A stretch of DNA of 64,000 nt from Rhizobacter sp. (lineage in GTDB: Bacteria; Pseudomonadota; Gammaproteobacteria; Burkholderiales; Burkholderiaceae_C): the NCBI GenBank assembly GCA_019635355.1, contig JAHBZQ010000001.1, positions 4,257,220 through 4,321,219 of the forward strand. Reading direction: 5' to 3'. The notes under the pieces are model-generated. The model was not told where the DNA came from and made no database searches. It worked only from the letters and a program-made list of their open reading frames with translations. The position numbers and the translations under genes were made by a program. This document shows positions 36,516 to 56,595 of this stretch, in pieces (position 1 is the stretch's first letter; every line of letters begins with the position of its first letter).

Positions 36516-37757
36516 TCAGATGGCCGCGCTCGGCGGGCAGAGGATGCCCAGGAAGATCGGCCGCACGTAGAGCTCGGCCACGTTGTCCTGCGTGGCGCTC
36601 GGCACCCAGTGCGTGAGGCTGCCGGCCGAGTTGACGAGGCCGCTCGCCACCTGCGCGGCGATCACCGGGTGCAGCGGGCGGATGGAGCCGTCCATCATGC
36701 CGTCGACCACCACGTCGGCCAGGCGCTCGGTGAGGCGGCTCATGGTGCGGCGCACGTCGCTGCGACGCTCGGGGTCGGAGAGGGCGCTGGTCGCGCCCAG
36801 GCGCAGCAGCGGGCCTTCGGGCGACAGCTGGAAGCGTGCGAGCGACCGCGAGATCGCACAGGCGCGGTCCCAGCCCTTGCCTTCGATGCCGTCGGCCAGG
36901 CTCAGCGCGCGGCGGATCACGGCGAAGGTGCGCTGGAAGCAGTCGAAGATCAGGTCTTCCTTGTTGTCGTTGTGGTGGTAGAACGAGCCCTTGGTCACGT
37001 TGAGCTTGGCCGAGATCATGTCGACCGAGGCGCCGCGGTAGCCCTGCTCGTTGACGAGGAAGGAGGCGGCGCGCAGGAAGGCTTCGGCGGTGGCGTCGTC
37101 GTTGACGGTGAGTCGCCATTCGCGCTCGGCCTGCGACGGGGCCCACACCGAGCCGGCCGCGGCGCTGCCGTGGATCACGATGTCGCTCACGCGCGCGGCG
37201 ATGTGGGCGTATTCGTCGGTCTCGTAGCGGTCGATCCAGCCGCGCACCCAGTGCGCCACCGACAACACCATGTAGGTGCGCGCGGCCAGGTCGGCCCGGC
37301 CGAGCTGCGCCGTCTGCGGCGTGCGCAGCAGCTCGCGCAGGCGGCGGAACATGTCGTTGTAGGCGTCGGAGACCACCTCGAAATGCGGGCTCGGCAGCGC
37401 GCGCATGTCGTTGAAGGTCATGAGCGGCGCATGCGCGCCGTGGTCGATGTCGGCGAAGAGGGCGGCTTGCAGGCGGAAGAACTCATGCACCCGCGCCTCG
37501 ATGCCGCTCTTTTGCGATGCCTGGTCGATGACGTGGCGGATGACCTCGATCGCCCGCAGGAAGCAGGCGGTCGCCAGGTCTTCCTTCTTGCGGTAGTAGT
37601 AGGTGACGCTGTTGGTGACCAGCCCCACGCTGGCCGCGATGTCGGCGAGCGTCGCGCCCTTCACGCCGTGCTGGTTGAAGAGGTCGGCAGCGGCACTGAG
37701 GATGGCTTCGCGCTTTTCCTGAAAGCGCTGCGTCTGGGCAGGGAGCGTCGCGGACAT
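36516..37757 (-). CDS. Tandem (double) TetR-family regulator
   Basis: Two TetR HTHs: EAILSAAADLFNQHGVKGATLADIAASVGLVTNSVTYYY and EAFLRAASFLVNEQGYRGASVDMISAKLNVTKGSFYHH; alternative start 37793. Confidence 0.9.
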   Translation of the reverse strand: MSATLPAQTQRFQEKREAILSAAADLFNQHGVKGATLADIAASVGLVTNSVTYYYRKKEDLATACFLRAIEVIRHVIDQASQKSGIEARVHEFFRLQAALFADIDHGAHAPLMTFNDMRALPSPHFEVVSDAYNDMFRRLRELLRTPQTAQLGRADLAARTYMVLSVAHWVRGWIDRYETDEYAHIAARVSDIVIHGSAAAGSVWAPSQAEREWRLTVNDDATAEAFLRAASFLVNEQGYRGASVDMISAKLNVTKGSFYHHNDNKEDLIFDCFQRTFAVIRRALSLADGIEGKGWDRACAISRSLARFQLSPEGPLLRLGATSALSDPERRSDVRRTMSRLTERLADVVVDGMMDGSIRPLHPVIAAQVASGLVNSAGSLTHWVPSATQDNVAELYVRPIFLGILCPPSAAI

Positions 37758-37838
37758 CGGCGGGTGACGGGAGGGGGGCTTGCGTGCAGCCATGAATTAT
37801 CCGCCAGCCCCTTCTCCTGTTCTGCCCTGCGCTACGCG

Positions 37839-38879
37839 TCAGGCAGCAATCTTTCGCGATTCCGGCATCTGCATCACCACGCCGTCGTGCAGGTGGCAGG
37901 CCACCGCGCGGCCATTGCCCTTGTCGAGCAGTGCCGGGTCCTTGGTCTTGCAGACGTCCATCGCCTCGGGGCAACGCGGGTGGAAGCGGCAGCCCGAGGG
38001 CGGACGCAGGGCGCTGGGCACTTCGCCGGTGACGACGATGCGCGGGCGCGTGGCCTCGATCTCGGGGTCGGCCACCGGCACGGCCGACATCAGCGCGCGG
38101 GTGTAGGGGTGCATCGGGCGCTGGTAGAGGTCGTCTTTGGACGCGATCTCGACGATGCGGCCGAGGTACATCACCGCGATGCGGTGGCTGATGTGGCGCA
38201 CCACCGCGAGGTCGTGCGCGACGAAGAGGTACGACAGGCCCAGGCGCTGCTGCAGCTCGACCAGCACGTTGACCACCTGCGCCTGGATCGACACGTCGAG
38301 CGCCGACACCGGCTCGTCGCAGATGATGAGGCTGGGCTCCAGCGCGAGCGCGCGGGCGATCGCGATGCGCTGGCGCTGGCCACCCGAGAACTCGTGCGGG
38401 TAGCGGTCGGCCATGTCGGGCAGGAGCCCCACCGTCTTGAGCAGGTGGGCCACACGGTCGCGGCGCTCGGCCTTGGTGCCGACGTTGTAGACCTCCAGCG
38501 GCTCGCTCACGATGTCGGCCACCGTCATGCGCGGGTTCAGCGAGCCATACGGGTCTTGATAGACCATCTGCATGCGGCGGCGGAAGCGCCCGGTGCGCTT
38601 GTCTTGCGCGGTGATGTCTTCGCCTTCGAAGAACACCTTGCCTTCGGTGATGTCCTGCATGCGCAGGATGGCGAGGCCCGTGGTCGACTTGCCGCAACCC
38701 GATTCGCCGACGAGGCCGAGCGTCTCGCCGCGGTTGAGCGTGAACGAGACGCCGTCGACAGCCTTCACCGCGCCGACCTGCTTGCGCAGCACGGCGCCCG
38801 CGTGCACGGGGAAGTGGACTTTCAGGCCCTCGACGCGCAGCAGCGGGTCGGACTTGGCGGACAGGGAGGTGGTGCTCAT
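37839..38879 (-). CDS. Opp/Dpp-type ABC ATPase (OppF-like)
   Basis: [22 protein letters not shown] and the C-terminal GCRFHPRC Fe-S motif. Confidence 0.96.
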
Positions 38880-39886
38880 GGGTTCACGGGTTCCGAACGG
38901 GCGGGGGACACGGCAGCGGCGTCACGGATGCAGGCCATGATGTGGTCGGTGCCGACCGTGCGCAGCTCAGGGCGGACCTGCCGGCATTCATCGGTGGCCA
39001 GCCGGCAACGCGGTGCGAAGGCGCAGCCGGGCGGCAGGCGAGTGAGGTCGGGCGGCGAGCCTTCGATGGGCACGAGGCGCTGAGACGAGTCCCCATCCAG
39101 GCGCGGTACCGAAGCCAGCAGGCCGCGCGTGTAGGGGTGGCTCGGGTTCTTGTAGATGTTGCGGGCCGACGACTGCTCGACGATGCGCCCGCCGTACATC
39201 ACCGCCACACGGTCGGCATAACGCGCAACGACGCCGAGGTCGTGGGTGATGAGGATGAGCGACGCGTTGGTCTCGCGGCACAGCTCCTTCAGCAGGTCGA
39301 GCACCTGGGCCTGCACCGTCACGTCGAGCGCGGTGGTGGGCTCGTCGGCAATGATGAGCCGCGGCTTGCAGGCGAGCGCCATCGCGATCATGGCGCGCTG
39401 GCGCTGGCCGCCCGAGAACTGGTGCGGGTAGGCGCTGCCCTTCGAGGCCGCATCGGGAATGCGCACCTTCGCCAGCAGCTCGCCCGCGGTCTTCAGCGCC
39501 ACCTCCCACACGGTGCCGCGGTGCAGGTTCATCGGCTCGGCGATCTGCTTGCCCACCGTGATGGTCGGGTTGAGCGAGGTCATCGGCTCCTGGAAGATCA
39601 TCGCGATGCGATCACCGCGCACCGCGCGGATCTCCTCATCGCTCATCTTCACCAGGTCCTTGCCTTCGAAGAGGATCTGGCCACTCTCGATGCGCCCCGG
39701 CGGGTTGGGAATGAGCCGCAGGATCGAGAGCGCGGTGACGCTCTTGCCCGAGCCCGACTCGCCCACGATGGCGAGCGTCTCGCCGGGGGCGACGTCGAAG
39801 GAGACGTTGTCGACCGCGGTCACCTCGCCACGGTCCGTGCGGAAGCGCGTGGTGAGGTTGCGGACTTGGAGCAGGGGTTCGGTCAA
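38876..39886 (-). CDS. Opp/Dpp-type ABC ATPase (OppD-like)
   Basis: TTG start; [25 protein letters not shown] and GCAFAPRC. Confidence 0.96.
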
Positions 39887-39893
39887 TTCGATC

Positions 39894-41588
39894 TCACTTA
39901 CCCATCTTTTTCTTGAGGTCCTGGTCGATCCAGATGCGTGAATAGATCGGCCAGGGGCGCACCGCGCCTGCGCGCAGCTCGCCGTCGTAGTTCTTCACCC
40001 ACGGCCACCAGGCCACGTGGTTGTAGGGCGTGGGCAGCCACACGTAGGGCGCCTTCTCGAGGATCTCGCGCGTCATCACCTTCAGCGCAATCTGGCGCTT
40101 GCCTTCGTCACGCTCGGCCAGCACCTCGTTCATGCGGCGCTCGAAGGCCGGGTCGTCCCACTGCGAGGGGTTCCAGACCTGGCCCTTGACGAAGTTCTTG
40201 CGGATCGATGTCGTCGGGTTGGTGTGGCCGTTGTCCATCAGGTAGAGCGGCGCGTTGGTGCGCGTCGTCATCGCCGACAGGAAGGCCGGGTACTCCATCG
40301 GCTGGATCTCGAGCTTGACGCCGATCTTGTCGTAGTAGGCGGCCAGCATCTGCACCAGGTCGGCGTGCGTGCCGTTGACCGAGTTGTATTGCACCTTGAA
40401 GGTGAAGCCGTTGGGGTAGCCGGCTTCGGCCAGCAGCTGCTTGGCGCGGGTCGGGTTGTAGGTGAAGAGGTCTTGCACCGCCTTCGGCATGGCCGACAGC
40501 GGCTCGAAGTAGCCCACGTAGTCGGGGTGCATCGGGAAGCCGAACACTTCGGCATGCCCGCTGTAGATCGACTTGATGATGGCCTGGCGGTCGACCGCCA
40601 TGTTCATTGCCTGGCGCACGCGGATGTCGTCGAAGGGCTTGGTGTCGACGCGCATGGCCATGTAGGTGCCGGCCATCGCCAGCGTGCGCGACCACTTGAG
40701 CTGCGGCGCCTGCTTCTTCAGGTCTTCCACTTCGCTCGCGCGGATCACTTCGAGGATGTCGAGCTTGCCGGTGCGCAAGAGCGAGTAGCGCGTGGCCTCG
40801 TCCTTGATGGTGCGGTAGGTCACCTTGTCGACGAAGGGGAGCTTGTACTCCTGGCCGCCGATCTTTTCCTTGTCCCAGTAGTTGGGGTTCTTGACGTAGG
40901 TGTTGGAGTTGCCGGCCTGGAAGTCCTGCAGCAGGAAGGGGCCGGTGCCGTTGACGTTCTTCCAGTTCGACGCGCCGGCCTCGACCACTTCCTTCGGCAC
41001 GATGGCCGAGTAGTAGCCCCAGCCCCAGCGGTAGTCCCACTCGGCGTTGTAGTGCTTGAAGTTGAAGACGACGGTGTGCTTGTCTTTCGCCGTGACCTTG
41101 GCGATGTGGTCGAGGTACTCGGGGATCTTCTTCGGGCTCTTCTGCTGGCGCTCGACCGCGTAGACCACGTCGTCGGCCACGAACTCGCGCGCCTTCATCA
41201 CGCCCGGCTTCTCGGGGTACATCACGCCCTTGCGCAGCTTCACTTCGAGCGTGAGCGGCTCGGTCCACTTCCAGCTCTCGGCCAGCTCGCCGCGGATCGC
41301 ATCGCTCGGCAGCCAGGCGTCGGCCACGAAGCGGTGCTTGCCGCCGTTCTTGACCGACTTCGACAGGTCACCCGCCCACAGCACCTCGTACTGCGCGCCG
41401 GCATCGTGGTTGATCTTCCAGTTGTAGTCGGCCGGGTCCCACGAGAGGGCGGAGATGCCCACGTAGACGGTGCCCAGCCGCAGCTCGCCGCCATATTGCG
41501 GCTTGCCTTGGGCAAGGGCGGCGGCAGGCGCCACGGCGATGGCGGCCGCGAGGGCGCATGCATGCAAGCAACTGCTGAACGTCTTCAT
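39894..41588 (-). CDS. ABC substrate-binding protein, family 5 (copy 2)
   Basis: Signal peptide; [21 protein letters not shown] and [17 protein letters not shown]. Confidence 0.93.
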
Positions 41589-41648
41589 GGGCTCGTCTCC
41601 TGTTGAGGTTGATCTGTCGCGATGGGGCCTCTGTCAACTACTTCTGAA

Positions 41649-43352
41649 TCACTTCCCCATCTTCTTCTTGAGTTCCTGGTCGACCCAGATGCGGGCGTGG
41701 ATCGGACCGGGGCGCTCGGCACCGGCGCGCAACTCGCCGCCGTAGTTCTTCACCCAGGGCCACCAGCCGGTGTAGACATAGGGCGAAGGCAGGAAGATCG
41801 CCGGCGCCTGCGCGAGGATGATTCGCGTCATCTGGCGCACCTTGACCTGGCGCACGCGCTCATCAGGCTCGGCGAGCACCTCGGCCATCATCTTCTCGAT
41901 GGTCGGGTCATAGAACTGCGACGGGTTCCACATCTGGCCCTTGACGAAGCTCTTGCGCAGCGCCGTTGTCGGGTTGGTGTGGCCGAGGAACATGAAGTAG
42001 CCCGGGGCGTTCTTCTTGGTCGTCATGGCCGAGAGGTACGCGCCATAGTCGAGCGTCTCGATCTCCATCGTCACGCCCACCTTCTGCAGGTAGGACGCGA
42101 TCATGGCCAGCAGGTCGGCATCGACGCTGCTGCTGGAGGTCTGCACCTTGAAGCTGAAGCCCTTGGGCAGGCCTGCCTCGGCGAGCAGCTGCTTGGCCTT
42201 GGTCGGGTTGTAGGTGTAGAGCTCCTTGATCTCGGGCGGCATGCTCTCGAGCGGCTCGTAGTACCCGGTGTAGTTGACGTGCATCGGGTAGTTGAGCATC
42301 TCGCCGTTGCCGCCGAAGTAGCCCTTGATGATGGCCTGCTTGTCCACCGCCATGTTCAGGGCGCGGCGCACGCGCACGTCGTCCAGCGGCTTGGTGTCCA
42401 TGCGCAGCGCAATGAAGTTGCCGCCGTTGGCCAGGTACTTGTTCCACTTGATCTGCGGGGCCGAGCGCTTCAGCTCTTCGACCGCGCTCCAGCGCACGGC
42501 TTCGAGCACGTCGATCTTGCCGGTGCGCAGCGCCGTCAGGAACGTCGCTTCATCCTTGATGTAGCGGTAGGTGATCTTGTCGACGAAGGGCAGCTTGTAT
42601 TCCTGGCCGCCGATCTTTTCCTTGTCCCAGTAGTTCGGGTTTTTCGTGAAGGTGAGCGACGCGCTCTGCGTGTAGCTGTCGAACATGAACGGCCCGGTGC
42701 CGTTGAGGTTCTTCCAGTCCTTGGCACCGGCGGCCACCACTTCCTTCGGCACGATGGCCGAGTAGTAGCCCCAGCCGAAGCGGTAGTCCCACTCGGCGTT
42801 GTATTCCTTGAAGTGGAAGGTGACGGTGTGCTTGTCGTTCGCCTCGACCTTGGTGAGGTGGTCGAAGTAGCCGGGGATCTTCTTCGGGCTCTTGTTGAGG
42901 CGGTCGTAGCTTGCGACCACGTCTTCGGCGGTCAGCTCGCGTGCTTCCATCACGCCAGGCCTCGCCGGGAACATCACGCCCTTGCGCAGCTTGACCACCA
43001 CGCGCATCGGGTTCTGCTCCATCTTCCAGCTCTCGGCGAGCTCGCCGCGCAGCGCGTCGGGGGGCAGCCAGGCGTCGGCGCTGAAGGTGTACTTGCCGCC
43101 GTTGCGCTTGGACTTCGTGAGGTCGGCGGAGAAGAGCTGCTCATAGACGAGGCCGGTGTCCTGGTTGTGCTTCCACGCCCAGTCGACGTGGTCGGACGAC
43201 AGCGGCGAGACGGTCACGTAGACGTTGCCGATGTTGAGCTGGCCGCCGTATTGCGGCTTTTCGGCCTGGGCGAAGGCCGTCGACGAAATGAGTGAAAGGG
43301 CCGCAGGGAGGGCGATGGCGCGCAGCTGCCGCGCCAAGGTCGTGAGTTGCAT
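41649..43352 (-). CDS. ABC substrate-binding protein, family 5 (copy 1)
   Basis: Start MQLTTLAR; [37 protein letters not shown] and DVRVRRALNMAVDK. Confidence 0.93.
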   Translation of the reverse strand: MQLTTLARQLRAIALPAALSLISSTAFAQAEKPQYGGQLNIGNVYVTVSPLSSDHVDWAWKHNQDTGLVYEQLFSADLTKSKRNGGKYTFSADAWLPPDALRGELAESWKMEQNPMRVVVKLRKGVMFPARPGVMEARELTAEDVVASYDRLNKSPKKIPGYFDHLTKVEANDKHTVTFHFKEYNAEWDYRFGWGYYSAIVPKEVVAAGAKDWKNLNGTGPFMFDSYTQSASLTFTKNPNYWDKEKIGGQEYKLPFVDKITYRYIKDEATFLTALRTGKIDVLEAVRWSAVEELKRSAPQIKWNKYLANGGNFIALRMDTKPLDDVRVRRALNMAVDKQAIIKGYFGGNGEMLNYPMHVNYTGYYEPLESMPPEIKELYTYNPTKAKQLLAEAGLPKGFSFKVQTSSSSVDADLLAMIASYLQKVGVTMEIETLDYGAYLSAMTTKKNAPGYFMFLGHTNPTTALRKSFVKGQMWNPSQFYDPTIEKMMAEVLAEPDERVRQVKVRQMTRIILAQAPAIFLPSPYVYTGWWPWVKNYGGELRAGAERPGPIHARIWVDQELKKKMGK

Positions 43353-43385
43353 GGGGTTCCTGTTGAGAGAAGACAAAGACGGAGA

Positions 43386-45242: not shown

Positions 45243-45377
45243 CAGCTCTGCCCCTCACTCACGATGGCGTTCTGCCACCATACCCAATCTTCTGCATGTC
45301 GGAATTCAGTTTGCATTCGCCTGCCTTGAGGTTCTTGCAGCTTTTCGCTGCGAAGCGGGGCGAATCATCCACTGAAG

Positions 45378-45460
45378 AAGATTCGAAGTCTCGCAGGGCA
45401 AACACTTAGCTGCCCTCGGTGTACGGGGTAATGCGGATGCATACCCAAGATTCGAAATCC
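45378..45460. promoter_or_regulatory. Two candidate operator sites upstream of the ABC operon
   Basis: AAGATTCGAAGTCT (45378-45391) and AAGATTCGAAATCC (45447-45460), near-palindromes 69 bp apart. Confidence 0.55.
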
Positions 45461-45532
45461 GGGAAAACGCGAAGAGCTGCGATGGAACTCGCGGTGCTTT
45501 GGCGCACTCTGGCGAGTGATTGTTCGGGCGTG

Positions 45533-46667: not shown

Positions 46668-46682
46668 GGGTTTCGAAAAGTC
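46668..46682. promoter_or_regulatory. Candidate operator in the divergent hydrolase/ACAD promoter
   Basis: GGGTTTCGAAAAGTC; 14/15 identical to 51024-51038. Confidence 0.55.
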
Positions 46683-46753
46683 AGTCTGCCAGAGAATCTC
46701 AACTCGTGCCACGGGGCAGCCCCGAGTTCAAAACACACTTTGGAGAGAAGCGA

Positions 46754-47998: not shown

Positions 47999-48040
47999 TG
48001 GCCTGAGGCTCGTCGCGCCCGTCTGCCGGCGGGTGTGAAC

Positions 48041-48076
48041 AAGGGCGCAGGGGAGTGCATCCTCTGCGCCCTTTTT
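48041..48076 (+). terminator. Intrinsic terminator after the ACAD gene
   Basis: AAGGGCGCAG...CTGCGCCCTT followed by a T-run. Confidence 0.8.
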
Positions 48077-48179
48077 GCGCATTCTGTGCGGTGGATCACC
48101 CCGCCGATGCGCCTTTGGTGGCATGGTTCGCAGTGTTGGGCGCCGCCGGTGGCGCACCCGGAACAGTTGGGTTGATCGT

Positions 48180-50039
48180 GTGAAGAAAACGCCGGAGGGT
48201 CCGGTTCAGCGACCTGTGGAAGGGCAGGTGCGCGGGGCATTCGAGGCCAGCATGGAAGTGGCGTGGGTGGACCGGGCGTTCTGGATCCTCCCCCGCATGA
48301 CGGCCCTCAACATCTTCGTGGCCATGGTGCTGATGCCGTGGTTCTGGCCCTTGCTGCCCATGAACGTGCTGGCCGCGTGGCTCGCGGCCCTGGGCGTGTT
48401 CGTCGTGTCGCGCGTGCTGGCGATCCGCCACCTGAAGCGCTGGCGCGCCGATCCGCAGCGCAAGGCCGAAGGCTCCTACAACCGCTTCTTCCTGCTCGCC
48501 CTGGTGTCGGGTGTGTACTGGGGCATCACCGCCTGGCTGCTGTTCCCCTACGGCGGGGCGAAGGAGCAGATGCTGCTCGGCTTCGTGCTCTACGGGTTGT
48601 GCGTGCTCAACTCGTATCACATCTCGATGAAGTACTACGCCTTCGAGGCGCACTTCTTCTGCTCGCTGATGCCGATGGTCGCGCACATTGCCCTGGGCGG
48701 TGACGCTTCCAGCATCCTCATCGCCGTGACCTTGCTCGTGATCGTGGGCGGCACGGGCTTCCTGTCGCGTTTCTACCTCATGAACTTCCGCAAGCTCGGC
48801 GAGGGCATGATGTGGCAGATGGGCCAGGAGAAGGCCGCGGCCGACGAGGCCCGTCGCGCGGCCGACGTGGCCCGCCACGAGGCCGAGGTGGCCAACCGCG
48901 CCAAGACCCAGTTCTTCGCCGCTGCCAGCCATGACCTGCGCCAGCCGCTGCATGCGATGGGCCTCTTGGCCGAGGCCTTGAGCCAGCGCAGCCACGACAA
49001 GGAACTCGCCCCGCTCGTGGCCAGCATCAACGGCTCGGTCGACGCGCTCGAAGGCCTTTTCTCCGAGCTGCTCGACATCACCAAGATCGACAGCGGCGCC
49101 GTCACCGTGTCACCCGAGCACTTTGCGGCCGGCGAGCTCTTCCGCAAGCTGCGCCTGCACTTCGAGCCGGTGGCGTTCGACAAAGGCCTGTCGTTGCGCT
49201 TTCGCGGTGGGGAGCAGGTGCTGCACGCCGACCCGGTGCTCGTCGAGCGCATCCTGCGCAACCTCGTCTCCAACGCCGTGCGCTACACGCATGACGGCAG
49301 CGTGCTCGTGAGCTGCCGCCGCCGCGGCGAGCGTGTGCAGCTGCAGGTGTGGGACACCGGCGTCGGCATCCCTGCCGACGAGCGAGAGCGCATCTTCGAA
49401 GAGTTCTATCAGGTGGCCGACACCCAGGCGCAGGTGCCGCAGGAGCGCAAGGGCCTGGGCCTCGGCCTCTCGATCGCGCAGCGGCTCGCGGCGCTGATGC
49501 AGGCGCCGCTGGGCTTGCGCTCGGAGCCGGGGCGCGGCTCGGTGTTCACGCTGGAGTTGCCGGTGGGCGATGTCTCGCAAGCGCATGCGCTGCACGAGCC
49601 GTGCGGCACGGCAGCGTCGGCGCGGGCGCTGGTCGGCCGCACGATCCTGGTGGTGGACGACGACGCCACGATCCGCGCGGGCCTCGAGGCCCTGCTCGGA
49701 GGCTGGGGCGCGAAGGTGCTGGCTTTCGGCAGCTTGCAGGCCGTGCGCACCTGGGCCGCACGGGCCGATGCGGTGCGGCCCGACCTGCTGATCGCCGACT
49801 ACCGGCTCGATGGCCACCACACCGGCGTCGAAGCCATTGCGGCCGTGCGGGGGCGTTTCGAGGGCGGCCTGCCCGCCATCATGATCACCGGCAGCCTGGG
49901 GAGTGAGCTCGGTGGCGAGTCCGCCGACCACGGCTTCCAGTTGCTGCTGAAGCCGGTGGCACCGCACAAGCTGCGGGCGCTGGTGAACTTCGCCTTGGCA
50001 GACGCAGACGGCGCCCGCAAGGACCCGGCCGCCGCGTGA
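48180..50039 (+). CDS. Membrane hybrid histidine kinase (multi-TM, HisKA, HATPase, REC); start uncertain (48180 or 48252)
   Basis: About 5-6 TM helices; ASHDLRQPL, NAVRYT, DTGVGI, GLGLGL; VVDDD..IADYRL REC. Confidence 0.92.
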   Translation: MKKTPEGPVQRPVEGQVRGAFEASMEVAWVDRAFWILPRMTALNIFVAMVLMPWFWPLLPMNVLAAWLAALGVFVVSRVLAIRHLKRWRADPQRKAEGSYNRFFLLALVSGVYWGITAWLLFPYGGAKEQMLLGFVLYGLCVLNSYHISMKYYAFEAHFFCSLMPMVAHIALGGDASSILIAVTLLVIVGGTGFLSRFYLMNFRKLGEGMMWQMGQEKAAADEARRAADVARHEAEVANRAKTQFFAAASHDLRQPLHAMGLLAEALSQRSHDKELAPLVASINGSVDALEGLFSELLDITKIDSGAVTVSPEHFAAGELFRKLRLHFEPVAFDKGLSLRFRGGEQVLHADPVLVERILRNLVSNAVRYTHDGSVLVSCRRRGERVQLQVWDTGVGIPADERERIFEEFYQVADTQAQVPQERKGLGLGLSIAQRLAALMQAPLGLRSEPGRGSVFTLELPVGDVSQAHALHEPCGTAASARALVGRTILVVDDDATIRAGLEALLGGWGAKVLAFGSLQAVRTWAARADAVRPDLLIADYRLDGHHTGVEAIAAVRGRFEGGLPAIMITGSLGSELGGESADHGFQLLLKPVAPHKLRALVNFALADADGARKDPAAA

Positions 50040-50060
50040 GCGGCCGGCCGGTGGCGGTCG

Positions 50061-50939
50061 TCAGCTCGACGCCGCCATCGCCTTGCCCACTTCATTGCGG
50101 CCCTGCTCGCTGCCGCTCTGCGGCACCACTTCCTCGTCGCGCGACGAGATGGCCTCGAACTGCGCCGCCACCTGGTCGTCGGCATCGGCGCCGGTGCCGA
50201 TGTGCGTGCCGAGCGTCATGGTCACGTAGCTGCGGGCAAACGTGCCGGCGCCGGCGTTGAGGATCACGCGCGTCGGCGCGTCTTCGCTCACGAGGTAGAG
50301 CAGGCCGGGCGTCACGGCGGCAGGCGCGAGCTTGTCGAGCACCACCTGCGGCATCAGGCCTTCGGTCATCGCGGTGGCCGCGGTCGGGGCCAGGCAGTTG
50401 ACCTTGACGTTGTCTTTCGCGCCTTCGAGCGAGAGCGTCTGCATCAGGCCGACGAGTGCCATCTTGGCGGCGCCGTAGTTCGACTGGCCGAAGTTGCCGA
50501 AGAGGCCCGACGACGAGGTGGTGTTGACGATGCGGCCGTACTTCTGCGCGCGCATGATGTCCCACACGGCCTTGGTGCAGTACACCGCGCCCATCAGGTG
50601 CACGTCGACCACGAGCTTGAAGTCGGCCATCTCCATCTTCGAGAAGCTCTTGTCGCGCAGGATGCCGGCGTTGTTGACGAGGATGTCGACACGGCCCCAG
50701 GTGTCCATCGTGGTCTTGACCATCGCCTGCACGGCGTCGAAGTCGGTCACCGAGCACGACACCGCGATGGCCTGGCCGCCGGTGGCCTTGATCTCGTCGG
50801 CCACGGTCTGTGCGCCAGGGCCCAGGTCGTTCACCACCACCTTCGCGCCACGCTTGGCGAGCGCGAGTGCGTGCTCGCGGCCCAAGCCGCCACCTGCGCC
50901 TGTCACGATCGCGACACGGCCGTCAAAGCTAATGCTCAT
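50061..50939 (-). CDS. SDR, MFE-2/HSD17B4-like (3R)-hydroxyacyl-CoA dehydrogenase
   Basis: TGAGGGLG, VVVNDLG, NNAGILRD and SSSGLFGNFGQSNYGAAK. Confidence 0.9.
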   Translation of the reverse strand: MSISFDGRVAIVTGAGGGLGREHALALAKRGAKVVVNDLGPGAQTVADEIKATGGQAIAVSCSVTDFDAVQAMVKTTMDTWGRVDILVNNAGILRDKSFSKMEMADFKLVVDVHLMGAVYCTKAVWDIMRAQKYGRIVNTTSSSGLFGNFGQSNYGAAKMALVGLMQTLSLEGAKDNVKVNCLAPTAATAMTEGLMPQVVLDKLAPAAVTPGLLYLVSEDAPTRVILNAGAGTFARSYVTMTLGTHIGTGADADDQVAAQFEAISSRDEEVVPQSGSEQGRNEVGKAMAASS

Positions 50940-50986
50940 AGTCCTCTTTCCAACAATCTGGTATGTTTTCCGAGGCTCAGAAAAAG

Positions 50987-51003
50987 GCCCTGTTTCACAG
51001 GGC
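50987..51003. promoter_or_regulatory. Palindrome in the divergent SDR promoter region
   Basis: GCCCTGT-TTC-ACAGGGC. Confidence 0.4.
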
Positions 51004-51023
51004 AGATCATCACTCGGAGACAA

Positions 51024-51038
51024 GGGTTTAGAAAAGTC
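51024..51038. promoter_or_regulatory. Candidate operator in the divergent SDR/SDR promoter
   Basis: GGGTTTAGAAAAGTC; matches 46668-46682. Confidence 0.55.
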
Positions 51039-51109
51039 GGTTGGTCGCCTTGCGCGCCTGCGTGGCCCAACCCTCGAAGCCCCTCCATTTAACCAGCAAG
51101 GAAGCTCTC

Positions 51110-51874
51110 ATGTCGTTGTTCGATCTCACAGGCAAGGTCGCCGTCATCACCGGCTCGTCACGCGGCATCGGCAAAGCCATCGCCGAGCGCATGGCCGAAC
51201 AAGGCGCCAAGGTCGTGATCTCGTCGCGCAAGCCGGAGCCCTGCGCCGAGGTGGCCGCGGCGATCAACAAGGCCCACGGTGCGGGCTCGGCGATCTCGAT
51301 CCCGGCCAACATCTCGTCGAAGGACGACCTCAAGCACCTGGTCGACGAGACCACGAAGCAGTTCGGCAAGGTCGACATCGTGGTGTGCAACGCCGCGTCG
51401 AACCCGTACTACGGCCCGCTCGCCGGCATCGAAGACGACCAGTTCCGCAAGATCCTCGAGAACAACGTGATCGCCAACCACTGGCTGATCAACTTCGCCG
51501 CACCGCAGATGATCGAGCGCAAGGACGGCACGATCATCATCGTGTCGAGCATCGGTGGCCTGCGCGGCTCGCCGGTGATCGGCGCGTACAACATCTCCAA
51601 GGCAGCGGACTTCCAGCTCGCGCGCAACCTGGCGGTGGAGTACGGCCCGCACAACATCCGCGTGAATTGCATCGCGCCTGGTCTGATCAAGACCGACTTC
51701 GCGAAGGCGCTGTGGGACAACCCCGAGACCCTGAAGCGCTCGACTGCCAACGCCCCGCTGCGCCGCATCGGCGAGCCCGACGAGATCGCCGGCGCGGCCG
51801 TGTTCCTCGCCTCGAAGGCCGGCTCGTTCATGACGGGCCAGGCGCTCGTCATCGACGGCGGCGTGACCATCTGA
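51110..51874 (+). CDS. SDR, DHRS4/LvaD-like carbonyl (keto-acyl) reductase
   Basis: TGSSRGIG, VVISSRK, NAASNP (DHRS4-type replacement of NNAG), YNISK and GLIKTDFAKALW. Confidence 0.9.
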   Translation: MSLFDLTGKVAVITGSSRGIGKAIAERMAEQGAKVVISSRKPEPCAEVAAAINKAHGAGSAISIPANISSKDDLKHLVDETTKQFGKVDIVVCNAASNPYYGPLAGIEDDQFRKILENNVIANHWLINFAAPQMIERKDGTIIIVSSIGGLRGSPVIGAYNISKAADFQLARNLAVEYGPHNIRVNCIAPGLIKTDFAKALWDNPETLKRSTANAPLRRIGEPDEIAGAAVFLASKAGSFMTGQALVIDGGVTI

Positions 51875-51890
51875 CCGATCGGAGCAACGC

Positions 51891-53096
51891 ATGACGACTG
51901 CGACTGCAGAGAAGCCCGAACTGAAAACCTTCCGCGAAGAAACGCGCGCGTGGCTGGAGCAGAACTGCCCGCCCGAGATGCGCAAGCCCGTCACCAGCGA
52001 AGACGACGTCTGCTGGGGCGGCCGCAAGTGGAAGTTCTCGTCCGACGCGCAGAAGGTGTGGCTGGAGCGCATGGCCGCGAAGGGCTGGACAGTGCCGACC
52101 TGGCCCAAGGAATACGGCGGCGGCGGCCTCGCTGGCGAGCAGGCCAAGATCCTCGCGCAGGAGATGCGTGCACTGAACTGCCGCGCCCCGGTGCAAAGCT
52201 TCGGCATCTGGATGCTGGGCCCGGCGCTCTTGAAGTTCGGCACGCACGAGCAGAAGCTCGAGTTCCTGCCGCCCATCGCGCGTGGCGAGATCCGCTGGTG
52301 CCAGGGCTACTCGGAGCCCAATGCCGGCTCCGACCTCGCCTCGCTGCAGACCAAGGCCGAAGACAAGGGCGACCACTTCATCGTCAACGGCCAGAAGATC
52401 TGGACGTCATACGCCGACAAGGCCGACTGGATCTTCTGCCTCGTGCGCACCGACCCGCAGGCGAAGAAGCACACCGGCATCAGCTTCGTGCTCTTCGACA
52501 TGCAGACGCCGGGCGTGACCACCAAGCCCATCCTCCTGATCTCGGGCAAGTCGCCCTTCTGCGAGACCTTCTTCGACAACGTGCGCGTCGAGAAGAAGAA
52601 CCTCGTGGGCACGCTCAACGCCGGCTGGGACGTGGCCAAGTACCTGCTGACGCACGAGCGCGAAATGATCGGCGGCATCGGCGACCGCGGCGCGGCCAAG
52701 CCGCTCGGCGTGTTCGCGCTGGAGCAGGTGGGGGCCGATGCGCAAGGGCGCGTCGCCGACCCGGTGCTGCGTGCACAGATTGCGCAGTTCGAGGTCGATG
52801 AAGCGGCCTTCCGCCTGACGATGGAGCGCGCGATGGACATGGCCCGCGCCGGCCAGGGCAACCCGGCCTTCAGCTCGGTGCTCAAGTACTACGGCGCCGA
52901 GCTCAACAAGCGCCGCCACGAACTGATGATGCAGGCGGGCGGCAGCGATGCGCTCGATTGGGAGAGCCCGCGCTCGCGCGAAGGTGCGCTGGCGCGTGCG
53001 TGGCTGCGCACCAAGGGCAATTCCATCGAAGGCGGCACGAGCGAAGTGCAGCTCAACGTCATCGCCAAACGCATCCTCGATCTCCCTGGAGCCTGA
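51891..53096 (+). CDS. Acyl-CoA dehydrogenase, catalytic subunit of a heteromeric pair (PimC/FadE26-like)
   Basis: WPKEYGG, WCQGYSEPNAGSDLASL, NGQKIWTS, LTHERE (catalytic Glu) and SIEGGTSEVQ. Confidence 0.92.
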   Translation: MTTATAEKPELKTFREETRAWLEQNCPPEMRKPVTSEDDVCWGGRKWKFSSDAQKVWLERMAAKGWTVPTWPKEYGGGGLAGEQAKILAQEMRALNCRAPVQSFGIWMLGPALLKFGTHEQKLEFLPPIARGEIRWCQGYSEPNAGSDLASLQTKAEDKGDHFIVNGQKIWTSYADKADWIFCLVRTDPQAKKHTGISFVLFDMQTPGVTTKPILLISGKSPFCETFFDNVRVEKKNLVGTLNAGWDVAKYLLTHEREMIGGIGDRGAAKPLGVFALEQVGADAQGRVADPVLRAQIAQFEVDEAAFRLTMERAMDMARAGQGNPAFSSVLKYYGAELNKRRHELMMQAGGSDALDWESPRSREGALARAWLRTKGNSIEGGTSEVQLNVIAKRILDLPGA

Positions 53097-53103
53097 ACAC
53101 CTC

Positions 53104-54243
53104 ATGGCACTCGTACTCACTGAAGAACAAGGGATGCTGCGCGACAGCGCCAAGTCATTCCTCGCCGACAACGCCCCCGTCTCCGAGCTGCGCAAGCTGC
53201 GCGACACGCGCAGCGCCGATGGTTTCAACCGCGGCCTGTGGAAGCAGTTCGCCGAGATGGGCTTCATCGGCGTGCTGATCCCTGAAGACCTCGGCGGCAT
53301 GGGCCTCGGCCTGGTGGAAGCCGGCGTGGTGATGGAAGAGATCGGGCGCAACCTCACGGCCTCGCCCTTCCTCGCGTCCAGCGTCGTGGCGGCGACCGCG
53401 CTCCTGAGCGCCGGCACCGCGGCGCAGAAGCAGGCCACCTTGCCGAAGATCGCCTCGGGCGAGTTGATCGCCACGCTGGCGGTCGATGAGCACAGCAAGC
53501 ACAACCCGCGCAACACCGCGCTCAAGGCCGAAAAGAATGGCAGCGGCTACACGCTCGATGGCGCCAAGACCTTCGTGCTCGATGGCCATGTGGCCGATCT
53601 CTTCATCGTCGCGGCCCGCACCAGTGGCGCCAAGGGCGATCTTGCCGGCGTCACGCTCTTCCTCGTCGATGCGAAGACGAGCGGCGTGAAGGTCGAACGC
53701 GTGGTGATGGTCGACGCGCACAACGCCGCACGCATCACCTTCGACAAGGTCGCCGTGCCCGAAAGCGCCGTGCTCGGCAAGGTCGGCGAAGGCCTCGTGC
53801 CGCTGAACGCCGCGCTGAGCGCCGGCCGCGTGGCCGCCTCGGCCGAGATGCTGGGCATCGCCGACGAGGTGTTCACCCGCACGGTGAATTACCTCAAGGA
53901 GCGCCAGCAGTTCGCCAAGATCATCGGCGAGTTCCAGGCGTTGCAGCACCGCGCGGCCCACCTCTATTGCGAGATCGAGTTCACCCGCTCGGCAGTGCTG
54001 AAGGCACTGCAGGGGCTGGACGAAGGCACGCCCACGGCCATCGGCCTCGCCTCGGTCGCCAAGTCCAAGGCGGGGGCGACCGTCACGCTCGCGGTGCAGG
54101 AAGGCGTGCAGATGCACGGCGGCATCGGCATGACCGACGAATTCGAGATGGGCTTCTTCATGAAGCGTGCGCGTGTGCTGCAAGAACTCTTCGGTGACGC
54201 GACCTACCACGCCGACCTGCTGGCCCAGCTGAAGAAGTACTGA
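53104..54243 (+). CDS. Acyl-CoA dehydrogenase, non-catalytic partner subunit (PimD/FadE27-like)
   Basis: Start MALVLTEEQ; degenerate N-terminal FAD motifs; RQQFAKIIGEFQALQH and QMHGGIGMTDE. Confidence 0.9.
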   Translation: MALVLTEEQGMLRDSAKSFLADNAPVSELRKLRDTRSADGFNRGLWKQFAEMGFIGVLIPEDLGGMGLGLVEAGVVMEEIGRNLTASPFLASSVVAATALLSAGTAAQKQATLPKIASGELIATLAVDEHSKHNPRNTALKAEKNGSGYTLDGAKTFVLDGHVADLFIVAARTSGAKGDLAGVTLFLVDAKTSGVKVERVVMVDAHNAARITFDKVAVPESAVLGKVGEGLVPLNAALSAGRVAASAEMLGIADEVFTRTVNYLKERQQFAKIIGEFQALQHRAAHLYCEIEFTRSAVLKALQGLDEGTPTAIGLASVAKSKAGATVTLAVQEGVQMHGGIGMTDEFEMGFFMKRARVLQELFGDATYHADLLAQLKKY

Positions 54244-54246
54244 GCG

Positions 54247-55992
54247 ATGACGACCTCACCGGATGCGAAACCCTGGCCGGTGATGTCGCTGGCCGAAGCG
54301 CATGCCTTGATGACGGCGCCGGGCACGCAGTTCGAGATCGAAGAGATCACGATCCGCGGCGTGCCCACGCGCGTGTGGAAGAACGCCCCGGCGACGCTTC
54401 GCGACCTCTTCCTCGCCGGTCGTGCGCATGGGGGCAAGACCTTCCTCGTCTACGAAGACGACCGCGCCACCTTCGAGAGCTTCTCGCGCGCCGCGCTCGC
54501 CATCGCGCATGCGCTGCTGCGCGACGGGGTGAAGAAGGGCGACCGCGTGGCCGTGGCCATGCGCAACCTGCCCGAGTGGCCCGCGGCCTTCTTCGGCGCG
54601 GCGCTCACGGGGGCCATCGTCACGCCGCTCAACGCCTGGGGGCAGGGCGCCGAACTCGAATACGCCCTCAACGACTCGGGCGCGAGCGTCGTCTTCCTCG
54701 ACGGCGAGCGGCTCGACCGCCTGGCCGACGGCCACCTCGCGAACTGCAGTGCGCTCCAGCGTGTCTACGTCACCCGCGATGCGAGAACCCATGTTGACGC
54801 CCGCGTGCATCGCCTGGAGAGCATCACCGGCACCGTCAACGACTGGGGCCGCCTGCCCGAGCTGCCGCTGCCCGACGTGAACCTCGCGCCCGACGACGAC
54901 GCGACCATCTTCTACACCTCGGGCACCACCGGCGCGCAGAAGGGCGCGCTCGGCACGCAGCGCTGCACCGGCACCACCGTCTTCGCCGGCCTGTTTTCCG
55001 GACAGCGGGTGTTCATCCGCAAAGGCGAGCCGGTGCCCGACCCCGCGGCTCGCACGCTGCAGCGCGCCTCGCTGGTGGCGATCCCGTTCTTCCACACCAC
55101 CGGCTGCCAGTCGATCCTGGCCGGCGCGCTCTATGGCGGCAGCAAGCTCGTCACCATGCACCGCTGGGACGTGGAGCAGGCGATGGACCTGATCGAGCGC
55201 GAGCAGATCACCGTGGCCGGGGGTGTGCCCACCATCGCGTGGCAGATCCTCGAGCACCCGAACCGCGAGCGCTACAACCTTTCGACCCTCGAGAGCGTGG
55301 CCTACGGCGGTGCGCCGGCTTCGGCCGAACTCGTGCGGCGCATCAAGCAGGTGTTCCCCACCGCGTCACCCAGCAGCGGCTGGGGCATGACCGAGACCAG
55401 CGCCACCTTCACCCACCACAGCGGCGAAGACTACGTGCGCAAGCCCGACAGCGCCGGCCCGTCCATCCCGGTCGGCGAGCTGCGCATCGTGGGCGAGCAG
55501 GGCGAGACCCTGCCGGCCGGCGAGGTGGGCGAGCTCTGGGCCAAGGGCCCGCATGTGGTGAAGGGCTACTGGAACAAGCCCGAGGTCAGCGCCGAGACCT
55601 TCACCGAAGGCTGGGTGAAGACCGGCGACCTCGCCTACCTCGACGACGAAGGCTGGCTCTACATCGTCGACCGCAAGAAAGACATGCTCATCCGCGGCGG
55701 CGAAAACATCTACTGCACCGAAGTCGAAGGCGTGCTCTACGAGCACCCCGCGGTGATGGATGCGAGCGTGGTGGGCCTGCCACACAAGCAGCTCGGCGAA
55801 GAGCCCGGTGCGGCCGTCACCCTCAAGGCCGGCGCCGAGGCGAGCGAACAGGAGTTGCGCGCTTTCGTGGCCGAGCGGCTGGCGCGCTTCAAGGTGCCGG
55901 TGCGCATCCTCGTGCTCGACGAGACCTTGCCGCGCAACGCCAACGGCAAGATCCTCAAGAAGGAAGTGAAGAGGCTGCTGGGCGTGGCCTGA
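54247..55992 (+). CDS. Long-chain acyl-CoA synthetase (FadD-like)
   Basis: YTSGTTGAQKG, GWGMTET, TGDLAYLD, IRGGENI and PRNANGKILK. Confidence 0.93.
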   Translation: MTTSPDAKPWPVMSLAEAHALMTAPGTQFEIEEITIRGVPTRVWKNAPATLRDLFLAGRAHGGKTFLVYEDDRATFESFSRAALAIAHALLRDGVKKGDRVAVAMRNLPEWPAAFFGAALTGAIVTPLNAWGQGAELEYALNDSGASVVFLDGERLDRLADGHLANCSALQRVYVTRDARTHVDARVHRLESITGTVNDWGRLPELPLPDVNLAPDDDATIFYTSGTTGAQKGALGTQRCTGTTVFAGLFSGQRVFIRKGEPVPDPAARTLQRASLVAIPFFHTTGCQSILAGALYGGSKLVTMHRWDVEQAMDLIEREQITVAGGVPTIAWQILEHPNRERYNLSTLESVAYGGAPASAELVRRIKQVFPTASPSSGWGMTETSATFTHHSGEDYVRKPDSAGPSIPVGELRIVGEQGETLPAGEVGELWAKGPHVVKGYWNKPEVSAETFTEGWVKTGDLAYLDDEGWLYIVDRKKDMLIRGGENIYCTEVEGVLYEHPAVMDASVVGLPHKQLGEEPGAAVTLKAGAEASEQELRAFVAERLARFKVPVRILVLDETLPRNANGKILKKEVKRLLGVA

Positions 55993-56007
55993 GCGGCGAG
56001 GCGGCGC

Positions 56008-56529: not shown

Positions 56530-56551
56530 GGGTGATCCTGCGGATGTGCTG

Positions 56552-56571: not shown

Positions 56572-56595
56572 TCCGTTCTCTAAAGGAAACGAGCT

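Follow-up and report, generated by a model that had tools for sequence, protein, structure and literature searches.

The gene cluster described here spans positions 36516-55992 of the window, that is, of the whole 64-kb stretch of DNA analysed, and lies in a genome of 5.34 Mb. The host is a betaproteobacterium of soil or freshwater. All genes listed in an earlier sequence-only reading, which had been made without database searches, were found in the window, with corrected starts: for the ACAD, the two SDRs and the second gene of the ACAD pair, translation likely starts further downstream than the longest ORF would suggest. One further gene, a hybrid histidine kinase, had been omitted from that list. 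The cluster comprises the following features.

36516-37793, minus strand: fused double TetR regulator, 425 aa (Pfam TetR_N twice, TetR_C_24)
37839-45242, minus strand: Opp/Dpp-type ABC importer, six genes (Pfam ABC_tran + oligo_HPY, SBP_bac_5, BPD_transp_1), as follows
37839-38879 and 38876-39886, minus strand: Opp ATPases (ABC_tran + oligo_HPY)
39894-41588 and 41649-43376, minus strand: Opp family-5 binding proteins (SBP_bac_5)
43386-44285 and 44286-45242, minus strand: Opp permeases (BPD_transp_1)
45533-46522, minus strand: alpha/beta-fold hydrolase, divergent from the ACAD (Pfam Abhydrolase_6/1)
46669-46685, plus strand: 17-nt motif GGTTTCGAAAAGTCAGT, candidate operator, 69-85 bp upstream of the ACAD start codon
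46754-47998, plus strand: ACAD10/ACAD11/LvaC-type flavoenzyme (phmmer against the PDB, residue alignment)
48075-50039, plus strand: hybrid sensor histidine kinase/response regulator, 654 aa (Pfam HisKA, HATPase_c, Response_reg)
50061-50939, minus strand: MFE-2-type SDR (best PDB relatives)
51025-51041, plus strand: second copy of the 17-nt motif, GGTTTAGAAAAGTCGGT, 69-85 bp upstream of the start codon of the DHRS4-like SDR
51110-51874, plus strand: DHRS4-like classical SDR (best PDB relatives)
51891-53096, plus strand: two-gene ACAD, large subunit, PimC/FadE26-like (NCBIfam, PDB)
53105-54243, plus strand: two-gene ACAD, small subunit, PimD-like (NCBIfam)
54247-55992, plus strand: acyl-CoA ligase (Pfam AMP-binding)

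The G+C content of the region is 0.64-0.70 and its composition is not foreign. As the cluster is also kept within the genus, the term island used for it earlier should not be taken to mean horizontal acquisition. Gene neighbourhoods were compared at ACAD loci, and counts refer either to 80 loci or to 40 orthologous loci with full flanks. The clustering exceeds chance: around orthologues of the ACAD in other Burkholderiales and in Alphaproteobacteria, the DHRS4-like SDR, ACAD pair, ligase and double TetR are found again together with it.

The best PDB match of the ACAD encoded at 46754-47998 was mouse ACAD11 (phmmer, E 9e-136, 456 bits), whereas the next ACAD class reached 128 bits. Aligned over 408 aa, the protein and the ACAD domain of the mouse enzyme share 56.6% identity. 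The motifs RIHHCMR and ADGPDEVH are both present, and a 14-residue stretch together with ADGPDEVH aligns with ACAD11 residues R626, R631, H634, R637 and D753, all five of which are kept. D753 is the catalytic base of ACAD11, R631 is conserved throughout ACADs, and R626, H634 and R637 form a cluster that occurs solely in ACAD10/11 and LvaC and has been proposed to hold the 4-phosphate (PMC12440821). The enzyme thus falls inside the ACAD10/ACAD11/LvaC clade, as had been suspected from family motifs. Judged by its sequence, the cluster carries a bacterial counterpart of mammalian ACAD11, predicted to eliminate phosphate from 4-phosphoacyl-CoA to yield 2-enoyl-CoA.

Alignment likewise upheld the earlier family calls for both SDRs and for the ACAD pair. 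The best solved relatives of the SDR at 50061-50939 are the MFE-2 dehydrogenase domains 2et6, 1gz6, 3oml and 1zbq (E 5.8e-123 to 1.6e-64, the value for 2et6 being a whole-protein one over two matched stretches), and the protein is predicted to be a (3R)-hydroxyacyl-CoA dehydrogenase. It occupies the same position in four other loci (L009, L010, L012 and L045). Among solved structures, the SDR at 51110-51874 comes closest to human and pig DHRS4 (E 9e-54, 40% identity), and the motifs TGSSRGIG and VVISSRK indicate that it is probably NADPH-dependent. Orthologues with at least 65% identity lie no more than 10 kb from the ACAD in 21 of the 40 full-flank loci, and two loci (L023 and L024) place the gene within ACAD-kinase-SDR-ligase operons. 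By neighbourhood and analogy, it is predicted to act as a 4-oxoacyl-CoA reductase, which is the step of LvaD.

The two adjacent ACAD genes have their nearest relatives in PimC/PimD and in the FadE26-FadE27 heterotetramer of solved structure, and probably encode an alpha2beta2 enzyme, in line with the heteromeric ACAD that had been proposed. The best PDB matches of the large subunit are 4x28 and 6wy8/6wy9. Against TIGR03204 (pimC_large) the large subunit scored 298 bits at a cut-off of 624, and the small subunit reached 237 bits against TIGR03203 (pimD_small) at a cut-off of 653; with scores under half of the Pim equivalog cut-offs, the pair was rejected as PimCD itself. Both subunits co-occur in seven further loci (L009, L011, L014, L021, L032, L035 and L070). 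The ligase scored 425 bits against an NCBIfam long-chain-fatty-acid--CoA ligase subfamily, below the cut-off of 476, and presumably activates the acid substrate. Its orthologues (58-65% identity) are found in the ACAD clusters of L023, L024, L029, L031, L035, L046 and L070, and both the ligase and the DHRS4-like SDR are recurrent partners of the ACAD.

The hydrolase carries the nucleophile motif AHSFGG, shows no signal peptide in its translation and gave weak matches only in the PDB and NCBIfam. It may be a cytoplasmic esterase, lactonase or thioesterase. The gene adjoins the ACAD in 3 of 80 loci (L009, L026 and L070), and the lactone-opening role proposed earlier would have to lean on this weak synteny. 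The Opp system accompanies the ACAD in 2 of 80 loci, its close orthologues adjoin the ACAD only in L021, and the solved structures nearest to its binding proteins belong to generic binders of peptides or haem. Membership of the importer in the pathway can be put forward only tentatively.

The last gene of the Opp operon encodes the double TetR, with two TetR_N helix-turn-helix units in one chain. Orthologues (48-62% identity) adjoin the ACAD divergently in six loci (L014, L017, L045, L029, L031 and L070), and the protein likely regulates the ACAD module. Across the 5.34-Mb genome, the pattern GGTTTNGAAAAGTCNGT of the 17-nt motif has only two occurrences, also when up to 2 mismatches are allowed, and L009 carries a near-copy upstream of its ACAD. 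The hybrid histidine kinase has a NahK/ErcS-like C-terminal part and an N-terminal part of 270 aa without known domain, and scored 363 bits against NCBIfam NF041832 (cut-off 400). As an insertion between the ACAD and SDR genes it is variable: L009 lacks it at this place, and the genomes G003 and G006 have it (72-74% identity).

A phosphate eliminase calls for a kinase, and the sequence-only reading had stated that an APH kinase and a thiolase are not in the window. This is correct, but both are encoded 11.7 to 15 kb past its end. The genome holds exactly two kinases of ACAD10/11 type, at 4.33 Mb and at 1.0 Mb. The former (C1:4332911-4334002) lies ~28 kb downstream of the ACAD on the opposite strand, in an operon with a FadB-like enzyme, a thiolase, an SDR, a ligase, TctC and ETF. 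It matches the ACAD11 kinase domain with E 8e-90 and PDB entry 3dxp with 1e-149, and its HGDxxxxN and DWE catalytic motifs (as given in bioRxiv 10.1101/2025.09.10.675409) are intact. The genome search suggested earlier for a kinase sharing the operator of the window yielded the kinase but not the operator: in a genome-wide pattern search, the 17-nt motif was not found at the kinase operon. Since the kinase gene is also non-adjacent, co-regulation of ACAD and kinase would be a conjecture.

With four ACAD11-like paralogues and only two such kinases in the genome, the pairing was inferred from synteny in other genomes. The 4.33-Mb kinase groups with those of L010, L013 and L045 (99% SH-aLRT), whose genes are directly preceded by those of a window-ACAD orthologue (81-84% identity) and a DHRS4-like SDR. 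In other Burkholderiales, orthologues of the kinase, FadB-like enzyme, thiolase and TctC directly adjoin window-ACAD orthologues; the latter three are contiguous with the ACAD in seven loci (L014, L016, L018, L021, L010, L013 and L045). The kinase gene comes directly after the ACAD gene in many Alphaproteobacteria. Members of the genus have the two genes 8-30 kb apart. Of about 400 genomes sampled across the class, 38 have this ACAD type, and 37 of these also carry the kinase, compared to 6 of ~363 that lack the ACAD type.

Taken together, we give a probability of roughly 0.7 to the window being one half of a dispersed pathway that takes 4-hydroxy, and probably 4-oxo, carboxylic acids into beta-oxidation via phosphorylation and phosphate elimination. 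The ligase at 54247-55992 would form the CoA ester, and 4-oxo substrates would be reduced to 4-hydroxyacyl-CoA by the DHRS4-like NADPH-type SDR. The 4-hydroxyl would then be phosphorylated by the APH kinase encoded outside the window, and the ACAD would remove the phosphate in a redox-neutral, FAD-dependent reaction to give 2-enoyl-CoA and possibly some 3-hydroxyacyl-CoA. Ordinary beta-oxidation would follow, to which the window would contribute the MFE-2-type dehydrogenase and the two-subunit ACAD, and the kinase operon its FadB-like enzyme, thiolase and ETF. LvaA/LvaC of Pseudomonas putida and their Burkholderia pseudomallei orthologues perform this phosphorylation and elimination (PMC11342911, PMC6692424). 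The pathway interpretation made from sequence is partly supported: identity and chain length of the substrate are a matter of inference, and lactones or plant polyester fragments are a guess. The genome-level checks proposed along with that interpretation did not contradict it, as the ACAD lies within the expected clade and the genome encodes a kinase partner.

The relation of the ACAD pair to PimC/PimD, which serve dicarboxylate degradation, and to FadE26-FadE27, an enzyme of steroid side chains, a steroid-24-oyl-CoA synthetase as second-best NCBIfam match of the ligase, and an MFE-2-type dehydrogenase, typical for branched or bulky substrates, would also suit a beta-oxidation set for another unusual acyl-CoA (dicarboxylic, methyl-branched or with a steroid-like side chain), in which the ACAD11-like enzyme is an ordinary dehydrogenase or an unrelated accessory. 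We regard this as unlikely, since no activity on conventional acyl-CoAs was seen for ACAD10 or ACAD11 (PMC12440821) and the window ACAD keeps the phospho-substrate-specific residues. In addition, among the 40 orthologous full-flank loci, 22 have the kinase gene directly 3' of the ACAD gene, as opposed to 5 with the ACAD pair, and the Pim and CasG scores are all far under curated cut-offs. It is similarly improbable that the ACAD is part of a separate pathway, using the product of the 1.0-Mb kinase or eliminating a different leaving group. The distance, opposite strands and differing promoter motifs of the ACAD and the 4.33-Mb kinase are compatible with such a separation, and a third locus at 2.84 Mb (SDR, ACAD11-like paralogue and a ligase 66% identical to that of the kinase operon) is an equally possible partner of this kinase. 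However, it is the orthologues of the 4.33-Mb kinase, not of the 1.0-Mb one, that follow the window-ACAD orthologues in L010, L013 and L045, the contiguity in seven Burkholderiales loci extends to other genes of its operon, and the 1.0-Mb kinase already has its own, overlapping ACAD gene. That the kinase acts on 1-O-alkylglycerol in ether-lipid salvage and the ACAD has a different job is very improbable: several prokaryotic ACAD10-kinase homologues phosphorylated chimyl alcohol in vitro, some with stimulation by acetyl-CoA (bioRxiv 10.1101/2025.09.10.675409), but this leaves unexplained the near-obligate genomic pairing with the ACAD and the place of the kinase in a beta-oxidation operon, and the B. 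pseudomallei kinase and ACAD substituted for the ACAD10 domains on 4-hydroxyhexanoyl-CoA (PMC11342911).

The proposed 4-hydroxy acid pathway has already been proven in P. putida, B. pseudomallei and mammals, so that the present cluster is an expected further example of it; lvaABCD homologues have been reported in Alpha-, Beta- and Gammaproteobacteria (PMC6692424). With the P. putida KT2440 lva operon (lvaR, lvaABCDEFG; Rand et al. 2017, as relayed in PMC6692424 and PMC12440821), it shares the logic of ligase, keto-reductase (SDR), kinase and ACAD-type eliminase. Unlike in that operon, the genes are scattered across about 50 kb, the kinase has no space beside it for a small LvaB-like gene, and a TetR-type regulator stands in for an adjacent sigma-54 LvaR. 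The kinase is ACAD10/11-like, whereas LvaA is more divergent (29% identical to ACAD10/11; PMC11342911). Like PimCD of Rhodopseudomonas palustris and FadE26-FadE27 of Mycobacterium tuberculosis (PDB 4x28), the ACAD pair is encoded by adjacent genes, with a heterotetramer as best solved relative.

The two SDRs resemble DHRS4 and the dehydrogenase domain of MFE-2 (HSD17B4), which, like ACAD11, are peroxisomal in mammals and are also co-listed in peroxisome inventories. The identity to DHRS4 is only 40%, our literature search found no published functional link between DHRS4 and 4-hydroxy acids, and in contrast to MFE-2 the window protein has no attached hydratase-2 or SCP2 domain.

The LvaA and LvaC orthologues of B. 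pseudomallei, from the same order (Burkholderiales) and with the same two-protein chemistry, were assayed in vitro on 4-hydroxyhexanoyl-CoA with no LvaB requirement reported (PMC11342911); a literature search found nothing on whether their genes neighbour those of DHRS4-like or MFE-2-like SDRs. In mammalian ACAD11 and ACAD10, the 4-hydroxyacyl-CoA kinase is fused to the ACAD domain that eliminates phosphate from 4-phosphoacyl-CoA (PDB 8v3u, 8v3v, 2wbi; PMC12440821, PMC11342911). Here, in contrast, kinase and ACAD are separate genes rather than one polypeptide, a HAD domain is missing, and four ACAD paralogues share two kinases. As in ACAD11, the window ACAD has the catalytic Asp and the Arg/His/Arg residues of the phosphate site, and the motifs of the 4.33-Mb kinase are intact. 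An ACAD11-type enzyme of this kind would provide the entry of 4-hydroxy and 4-oxo fatty acids into normal fat breakdown.

The stretch 36516-55992 had been read from sequence as a candidate lactone / 4-hydroxy- or 4-oxo-fatty-acid pathway. Gene calling by third-position G+C, with likely start codons corrected by reading of the sequence, and annotation with Pfam and NCBIfam found every gene named in that sequence-only reading to be present in the window (C1:4257220-4321219 of the 5.34-Mb genome; bare coordinates refer to the window, those prefixed C1 to the contig). A hybrid histidine kinase/response regulator was missing from its list. The features are as follows.

45242 down to 36516, minus strand: Opp operon with two permeases, two family-5 binding proteins, two Opp-type ATPases and a fused double TetR (Pfam/NCBIfam)
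45533-46522, minus strand: alpha/beta hydrolase (Pfam/NCBIfam)
46754-47998, plus strand: acyl-CoA dehydrogenase (window ACAD) with motifs RIHHCMR and ADGPDEVH, divergent from the hydrolase
48075-50039, plus strand: hybrid histidine kinase/response regulator, between the window ACAD and the SDRs
50061-50939, minus strand: MFE-2-like SDR
51110-51874, plus strand: DHRS4-like SDR
51891-53096 and 53105-54243, plus strand: two-gene acyl-CoA dehydrogenase (ACAD pair), adjacent genes
54247-55992, plus strand: CoA ligase

The hybrid histidine kinase is a variable insertion. No copy stands at the same position in the closest public relative, and in two genus members (G003 and G006) it is just 72-74% identical, compared with 93-98% for the adjoining ACAD; its N-terminal 270 amino acids contain no recognised domain. 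G+C content is 68% over the whole window and falls to ~0.64-0.65 at 40001-48000, a stretch spanning binding-protein, permease, hydrolase and window ACAD genes, compared with 0.67-0.71 elsewhere in the window. Horizontal acquisition of the cluster was considered and rejected, because this dip is only slight and members of the genus share the cluster.

The window ACAD had been assigned to the ACAD10/ACAD11/LvaC clade from family motifs, and this assignment survives alignment. The protein scores 456 bits against mouse ACAD11 (E 9e-136), 442 bits against human ACAD11 (E 2e-131) and 438 bits against 4hr3, whereas the best conventional ACAD class reaches 128 bits only. It is 56.6% identical to the ACAD domain of mouse ACAD11 over 408 residues. 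Mouse ACAD11-type sequences are the only ones with which the window ACAD and its paralogues group in the tree; the window ACAD lies inside a 16-member Burkholderiales clade, with its three paralogues and mouse ACAD11 outside. Its closest public relative comes from a Rhizobacter MAG, with those of Rubrivivax and Ideonella next.

The residues that set this family apart are likewise kept. D753 is the catalytic base of ACAD11 (PMC12440821), replacing the usual Glu, and the alignment places an Asp at this position in the window ACAD; PDB entry 8v3v has an Asn there. R626, H634 and R637 make up a cluster that only ACAD10/11 and LvaC have, and which is proposed to bind the 4-phosphate (PMC12440821). 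The 14-residue stretch holding their equivalents is identical between the window ACAD and ACAD11, and a stretch of this type was found in 85 of 85 compared sequences. The alternative that the enzyme serves as an ordinary dehydrogenase, or in a dicarboxylate- or steroid-type pathway, is unlikely, as it is at odds with both the conserved phospho-site residues and the linkage to a kinase.

The sequence-only reading had placed both the kinase and a thiolase outside the window. This is correct, but both are close by, in one operon. An APH-type, ACAD10/11-like kinase (the 4.33-Mb kinase; C1:4332911-4334002, minus strand) is located 11.7 kb past the window end, at ~28 kb downstream from the window ACAD, in a kinase operon that encodes a FadB-like enzyme, the thiolase, an SDR, the kinase, a ligase, TctC and both ETF subunits. 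The kinase aligns with the ACAD11 kinase domain (E 8e-90) and the structural-genomics entry 3dxp (1e-149), and its HGDxxxxN and DWE motifs are intact. Between the ACAD cluster and the kinase operon we observed a further operon (57879-63369, minus strand) of a carboxylesterase, a family III CoA-transferase, two crotonases and a membrane acyltransferase-3, and beyond it genes for another ligase, a cyclase-fold hydrolase, a beta-lactamase-fold protein, a 2-hydroxyacid dehydrogenase and a class II aldolase. Ester- and acyl-CoA-handling genes are abundant across the whole ~50-kb stretch.

The genome search for a kinase partner, suggested at the outset, returned exactly two ACAD10/11-type kinases; the second, at 1.0 Mb, has a gene that overlaps its own ACAD gene. 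No histidine phosphatase gene was found beside either kinase, where the neighbours include a Crp-like regulator and a GST. There are four ACAD11-like paralogues in the genome. One belongs to a third, Lva-like set at C1:2839600-2843428 (locus L092), which comprises an SDR, the paralogue (58% blastp identity with the window ACAD) and a ligase that shares 66% identity with its counterpart beside the 4.33-Mb kinase, without a kinase. The fourth gene is located at C1:706366-707643. An apparent 1126-aa fusion with an ACAD11-like domain at 0.71 Mb was rejected as an artefact that arose when ORFs were extended in high-G+C DNA; the gene itself encodes ~425 aa. Altogether, two kinases are shared by four eliminase-type ACADs. 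Candidate 4-oxoacyl-CoA-reducing SDRs number three: one in the window (51110-51874), one beside the kinase and one beside the 2.84-Mb paralogue.

Whether the two halves belong together was addressed in 80 loci surrounding relatives of the window ACAD, on which homologues of every cluster protein were mapped; adjacency was counted in the 40 loci that have at least 8 kb on both sides. A kinase stands immediately downstream of the ACAD in 22 of these 40 loci and a DHRS4-like SDR is present in 21, while the ACAD pair occurs in five, the Opp system in two and the hydrolase in one. Three Burkholderiales MAGs (L010, L013 and L045) share the order ACAD, (MFE-2-like SDR), DHRS4-like SDR, kinase, TctC. 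Their kinases share 70-73% identity with the 4.33-Mb kinase and fall in the same clade (99% SH-aLRT), with the 1.0-Mb kinase outside it. In four further loci (L014, L016, L018 and L021), the ACAD cluster continues directly into orthologues of the FadB-like enzyme and the thiolase (69-81% identity). An uncultured Rhodoblastus sp. MAG (L023) carries ACAD, kinase, DHRS4-like SDR and ligase as one tight operon, and so, judged by the same four homologues, does L024. It is unlikely that the window ACAD pairs with the 1.0-Mb kinase instead, as this synteny of orthologues speaks against it.

Co-occurrence was assessed in a class sample of ~400 genomes, of which 38 contain a window-type ACAD and ~363 do not. 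The kinase was found in 37 of the 38 ACAD-positive genomes vs 6 of the ~363 ACAD-negative ones. Many of these genomes have the ACAD and the kinase on separate contigs or at a long distance from each other, so that lack of linkage is common and not an anomaly. In 14 of 20 sampled class loci no kinase homologue was detected within ~8 kb of the ACAD gene, several of the genomes concerned having it on a separate contig or at a distant site. In this genome and its genus the kinase is neither fused nor adjacent to the ACAD, the distance to a 4.33-Mb-type kinase in genus members being 8-30 kb. Adjacency of ACAD and kinase is common, not defining. Although alkylglycerol kinase activity has been reported for prokaryotic homologues of the kinase (bioRxiv 10.1101/2025.09.10.675409), such a role in this bacterium is highly improbable, as it would leave the ACAD pairing and the beta-oxidation context of the kinase unexplained.

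The earlier family calls for the companion enzymes held up on comparison with solved structures and curated models. Among solved structures, the DHRS4-like SDR is most similar to human and pig DHRS4 (3o4r, E 9e-54; 2zat, E 1.6e-53) at 40% identity, a similarity that may or may not reflect orthology; it is a classical SDR with NADP(H)-type motifs and carries TGSSRGIG, VVISSRK and YNISK. For the MFE-2-like SDR, the nearest solved relatives are the (3R)-hydroxyacyl-CoA dehydrogenase domains of MFE-2 (2et6, 1gz6, 3oml and 1zbq, E 5.8e-123 to 1.6e-64), compared with E 4e-48 for the best FabG, and the enzyme is presumably (3R)-stereospecific. The ACAD pair, which had been called heteromeric, is nearest to PimC/PimD and to the FadE26-FadE27 heterotetramer. 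It reaches 298 bits against TIGR03204 and 237 bits against TIGR03203, with curated equivalog cut-offs of 624 and 653. Being far under these values, the pair is not PimCD, but Pim-like and two-subunit.

In P. putida, LvaA and LvaC phosphorylate 4-hydroxyacyl-CoA and then eliminate the phosphate in a redox-neutral, FAD-dependent reaction, which yields 2-enoyl-CoA with some 3-hydroxyacyl-CoA (PMC12440821, PMC6692424). The fused domains of ACAD10/11 catalyse the same two steps (PMC12440821, PMC11342911), and orthologues from B. pseudomallei do the same chemistry in vitro (PMC11342911). By analogy and from the conserved neighbourhood, the CoA ligase at 54247-55992 would activate the acid and the DHRS4-like SDR would reduce the 4-oxoacyl-CoA, which is LvaD's step. 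The 4.33-Mb kinase is predicted to phosphorylate the resulting 4-hydroxyacyl-CoA, and the window ACAD to eliminate phosphate from the 4-phosphoacyl-CoA to give 2-enoyl-CoA with no external electron acceptor. MFE-2-like SDR, ACAD pair, FadB-like enzyme, thiolase and ETF would shorten the chain, both until the 4-position is reached and afterwards. Ester or lactone opening may be the task of the hydrolase, and uptake of the substrate may be that of the Opp or TctC proteins.

With regard to regulation, the double TetR gene adjoins the ACAD in six other loci, and the protein is likely to be the regulator of the window ACAD module. The 17-nt non-palindromic motif GGTTTNGAAAAGTCNGT has two copies genome-wide, at 46669-46685 and 51025-51041, which lie 69-85 bp upstream of the start codons of the window ACAD and the DHRS4-like SDR, respectively; no further copy exists elsewhere in the genome even allowing 2 mismatches. 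Being asymmetric, the motif would fit the fused double TetR as a candidate operator. Two further TTCGAA sites are located upstream of the Opp operon, at 45382 and 45451. Promoter and terminator consensus scans of 45000-57000 gave no excess over shuffled sequence. No kinase carrying the same operator as the window promoters was found: GGTTTNGAAAAGTCNGT is absent from the kinase operon, and a shared operator was rejected. The divergent promoter region at C1:4338340-4338640 (17342-17642 of locus L089 of this genome), between the FadB-like gene of the kinase operon and another ACAD pair, has two clear inverted repeats of a different kind, ATGTTC-N9-GAACAT and GATGCAGA-A-TCTGCATC. These are unrelated to GGTTTNGAAAAGTCNGT, which suggests that the kinase operon is under a separate regulator. 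A sigma-54 activator gene lies ~5 kb beyond the kinase operon.

A more far-reaching proposal, to which we give about one chance in seven, is that ACAD11-like eliminase, kinase and DHRS4-like SDR, which recur together in bacteria, form a conserved module, joined in Burkholderiales by the MFE-2-like SDR. The DHRS4-family reductase would make (R)-4-hydroxyacyl-CoA from 4-oxoacyl-CoA or invert the (S)-isomer, and the MFE-2-type enzyme would oxidise the (3R)-hydroxy product of the eliminase. If so, peroxisomal DHRS4 would act upstream of ACAD11 when mammals break down 4-oxo and 4-hydroxy acids; the literature searched yielded no functional link between DHRS4 and ACAD11. The conserved companions (DHRS4-like SDR, ligase, two-subunit ACAD, double TetR) are cheap biochemical targets and yield this one testable idea on the role of mammalian DHRS4. 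Moreover, the ACAD10/11-type 4-hydroxy-acid route is recognisable in bacteria even with the kinase away from the flavoenzyme, where annotation based on adjacency would miss or under-call it.

Homologues of lvaABCD have been noted before in Alpha-, Beta- and Gammaproteobacteria (PMC6692424), and Burkholderia proteins have already been assayed. The pathway is therefore already known in kind, and neither the chemistry nor the system is new. No lvaABCDE-type operon was recognisable in 20 loci around ACAD11-like genes of the class-wide sample. The lva operon of P. putida is contiguous and has the sigma-54 activator LvaR, whereas here the genes are dispersed over ~50 kb with TetR-type regulators in the window. 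In P. putida the gene for the small LvaB adjoins that of the kinase, and the two proteins are required together; here the gaps beside the 4.33-Mb kinase gene measure 147 bp and 34 bp and thus leave no room for a 12-kDa LvaB gene. What is particular to this genome is the dispersed layout, four ACAD paralogues with two kinases, the lack of room for LvaB, likely TetR-type control, and the recurrent DHRS4-like and MFE-2-like companions.
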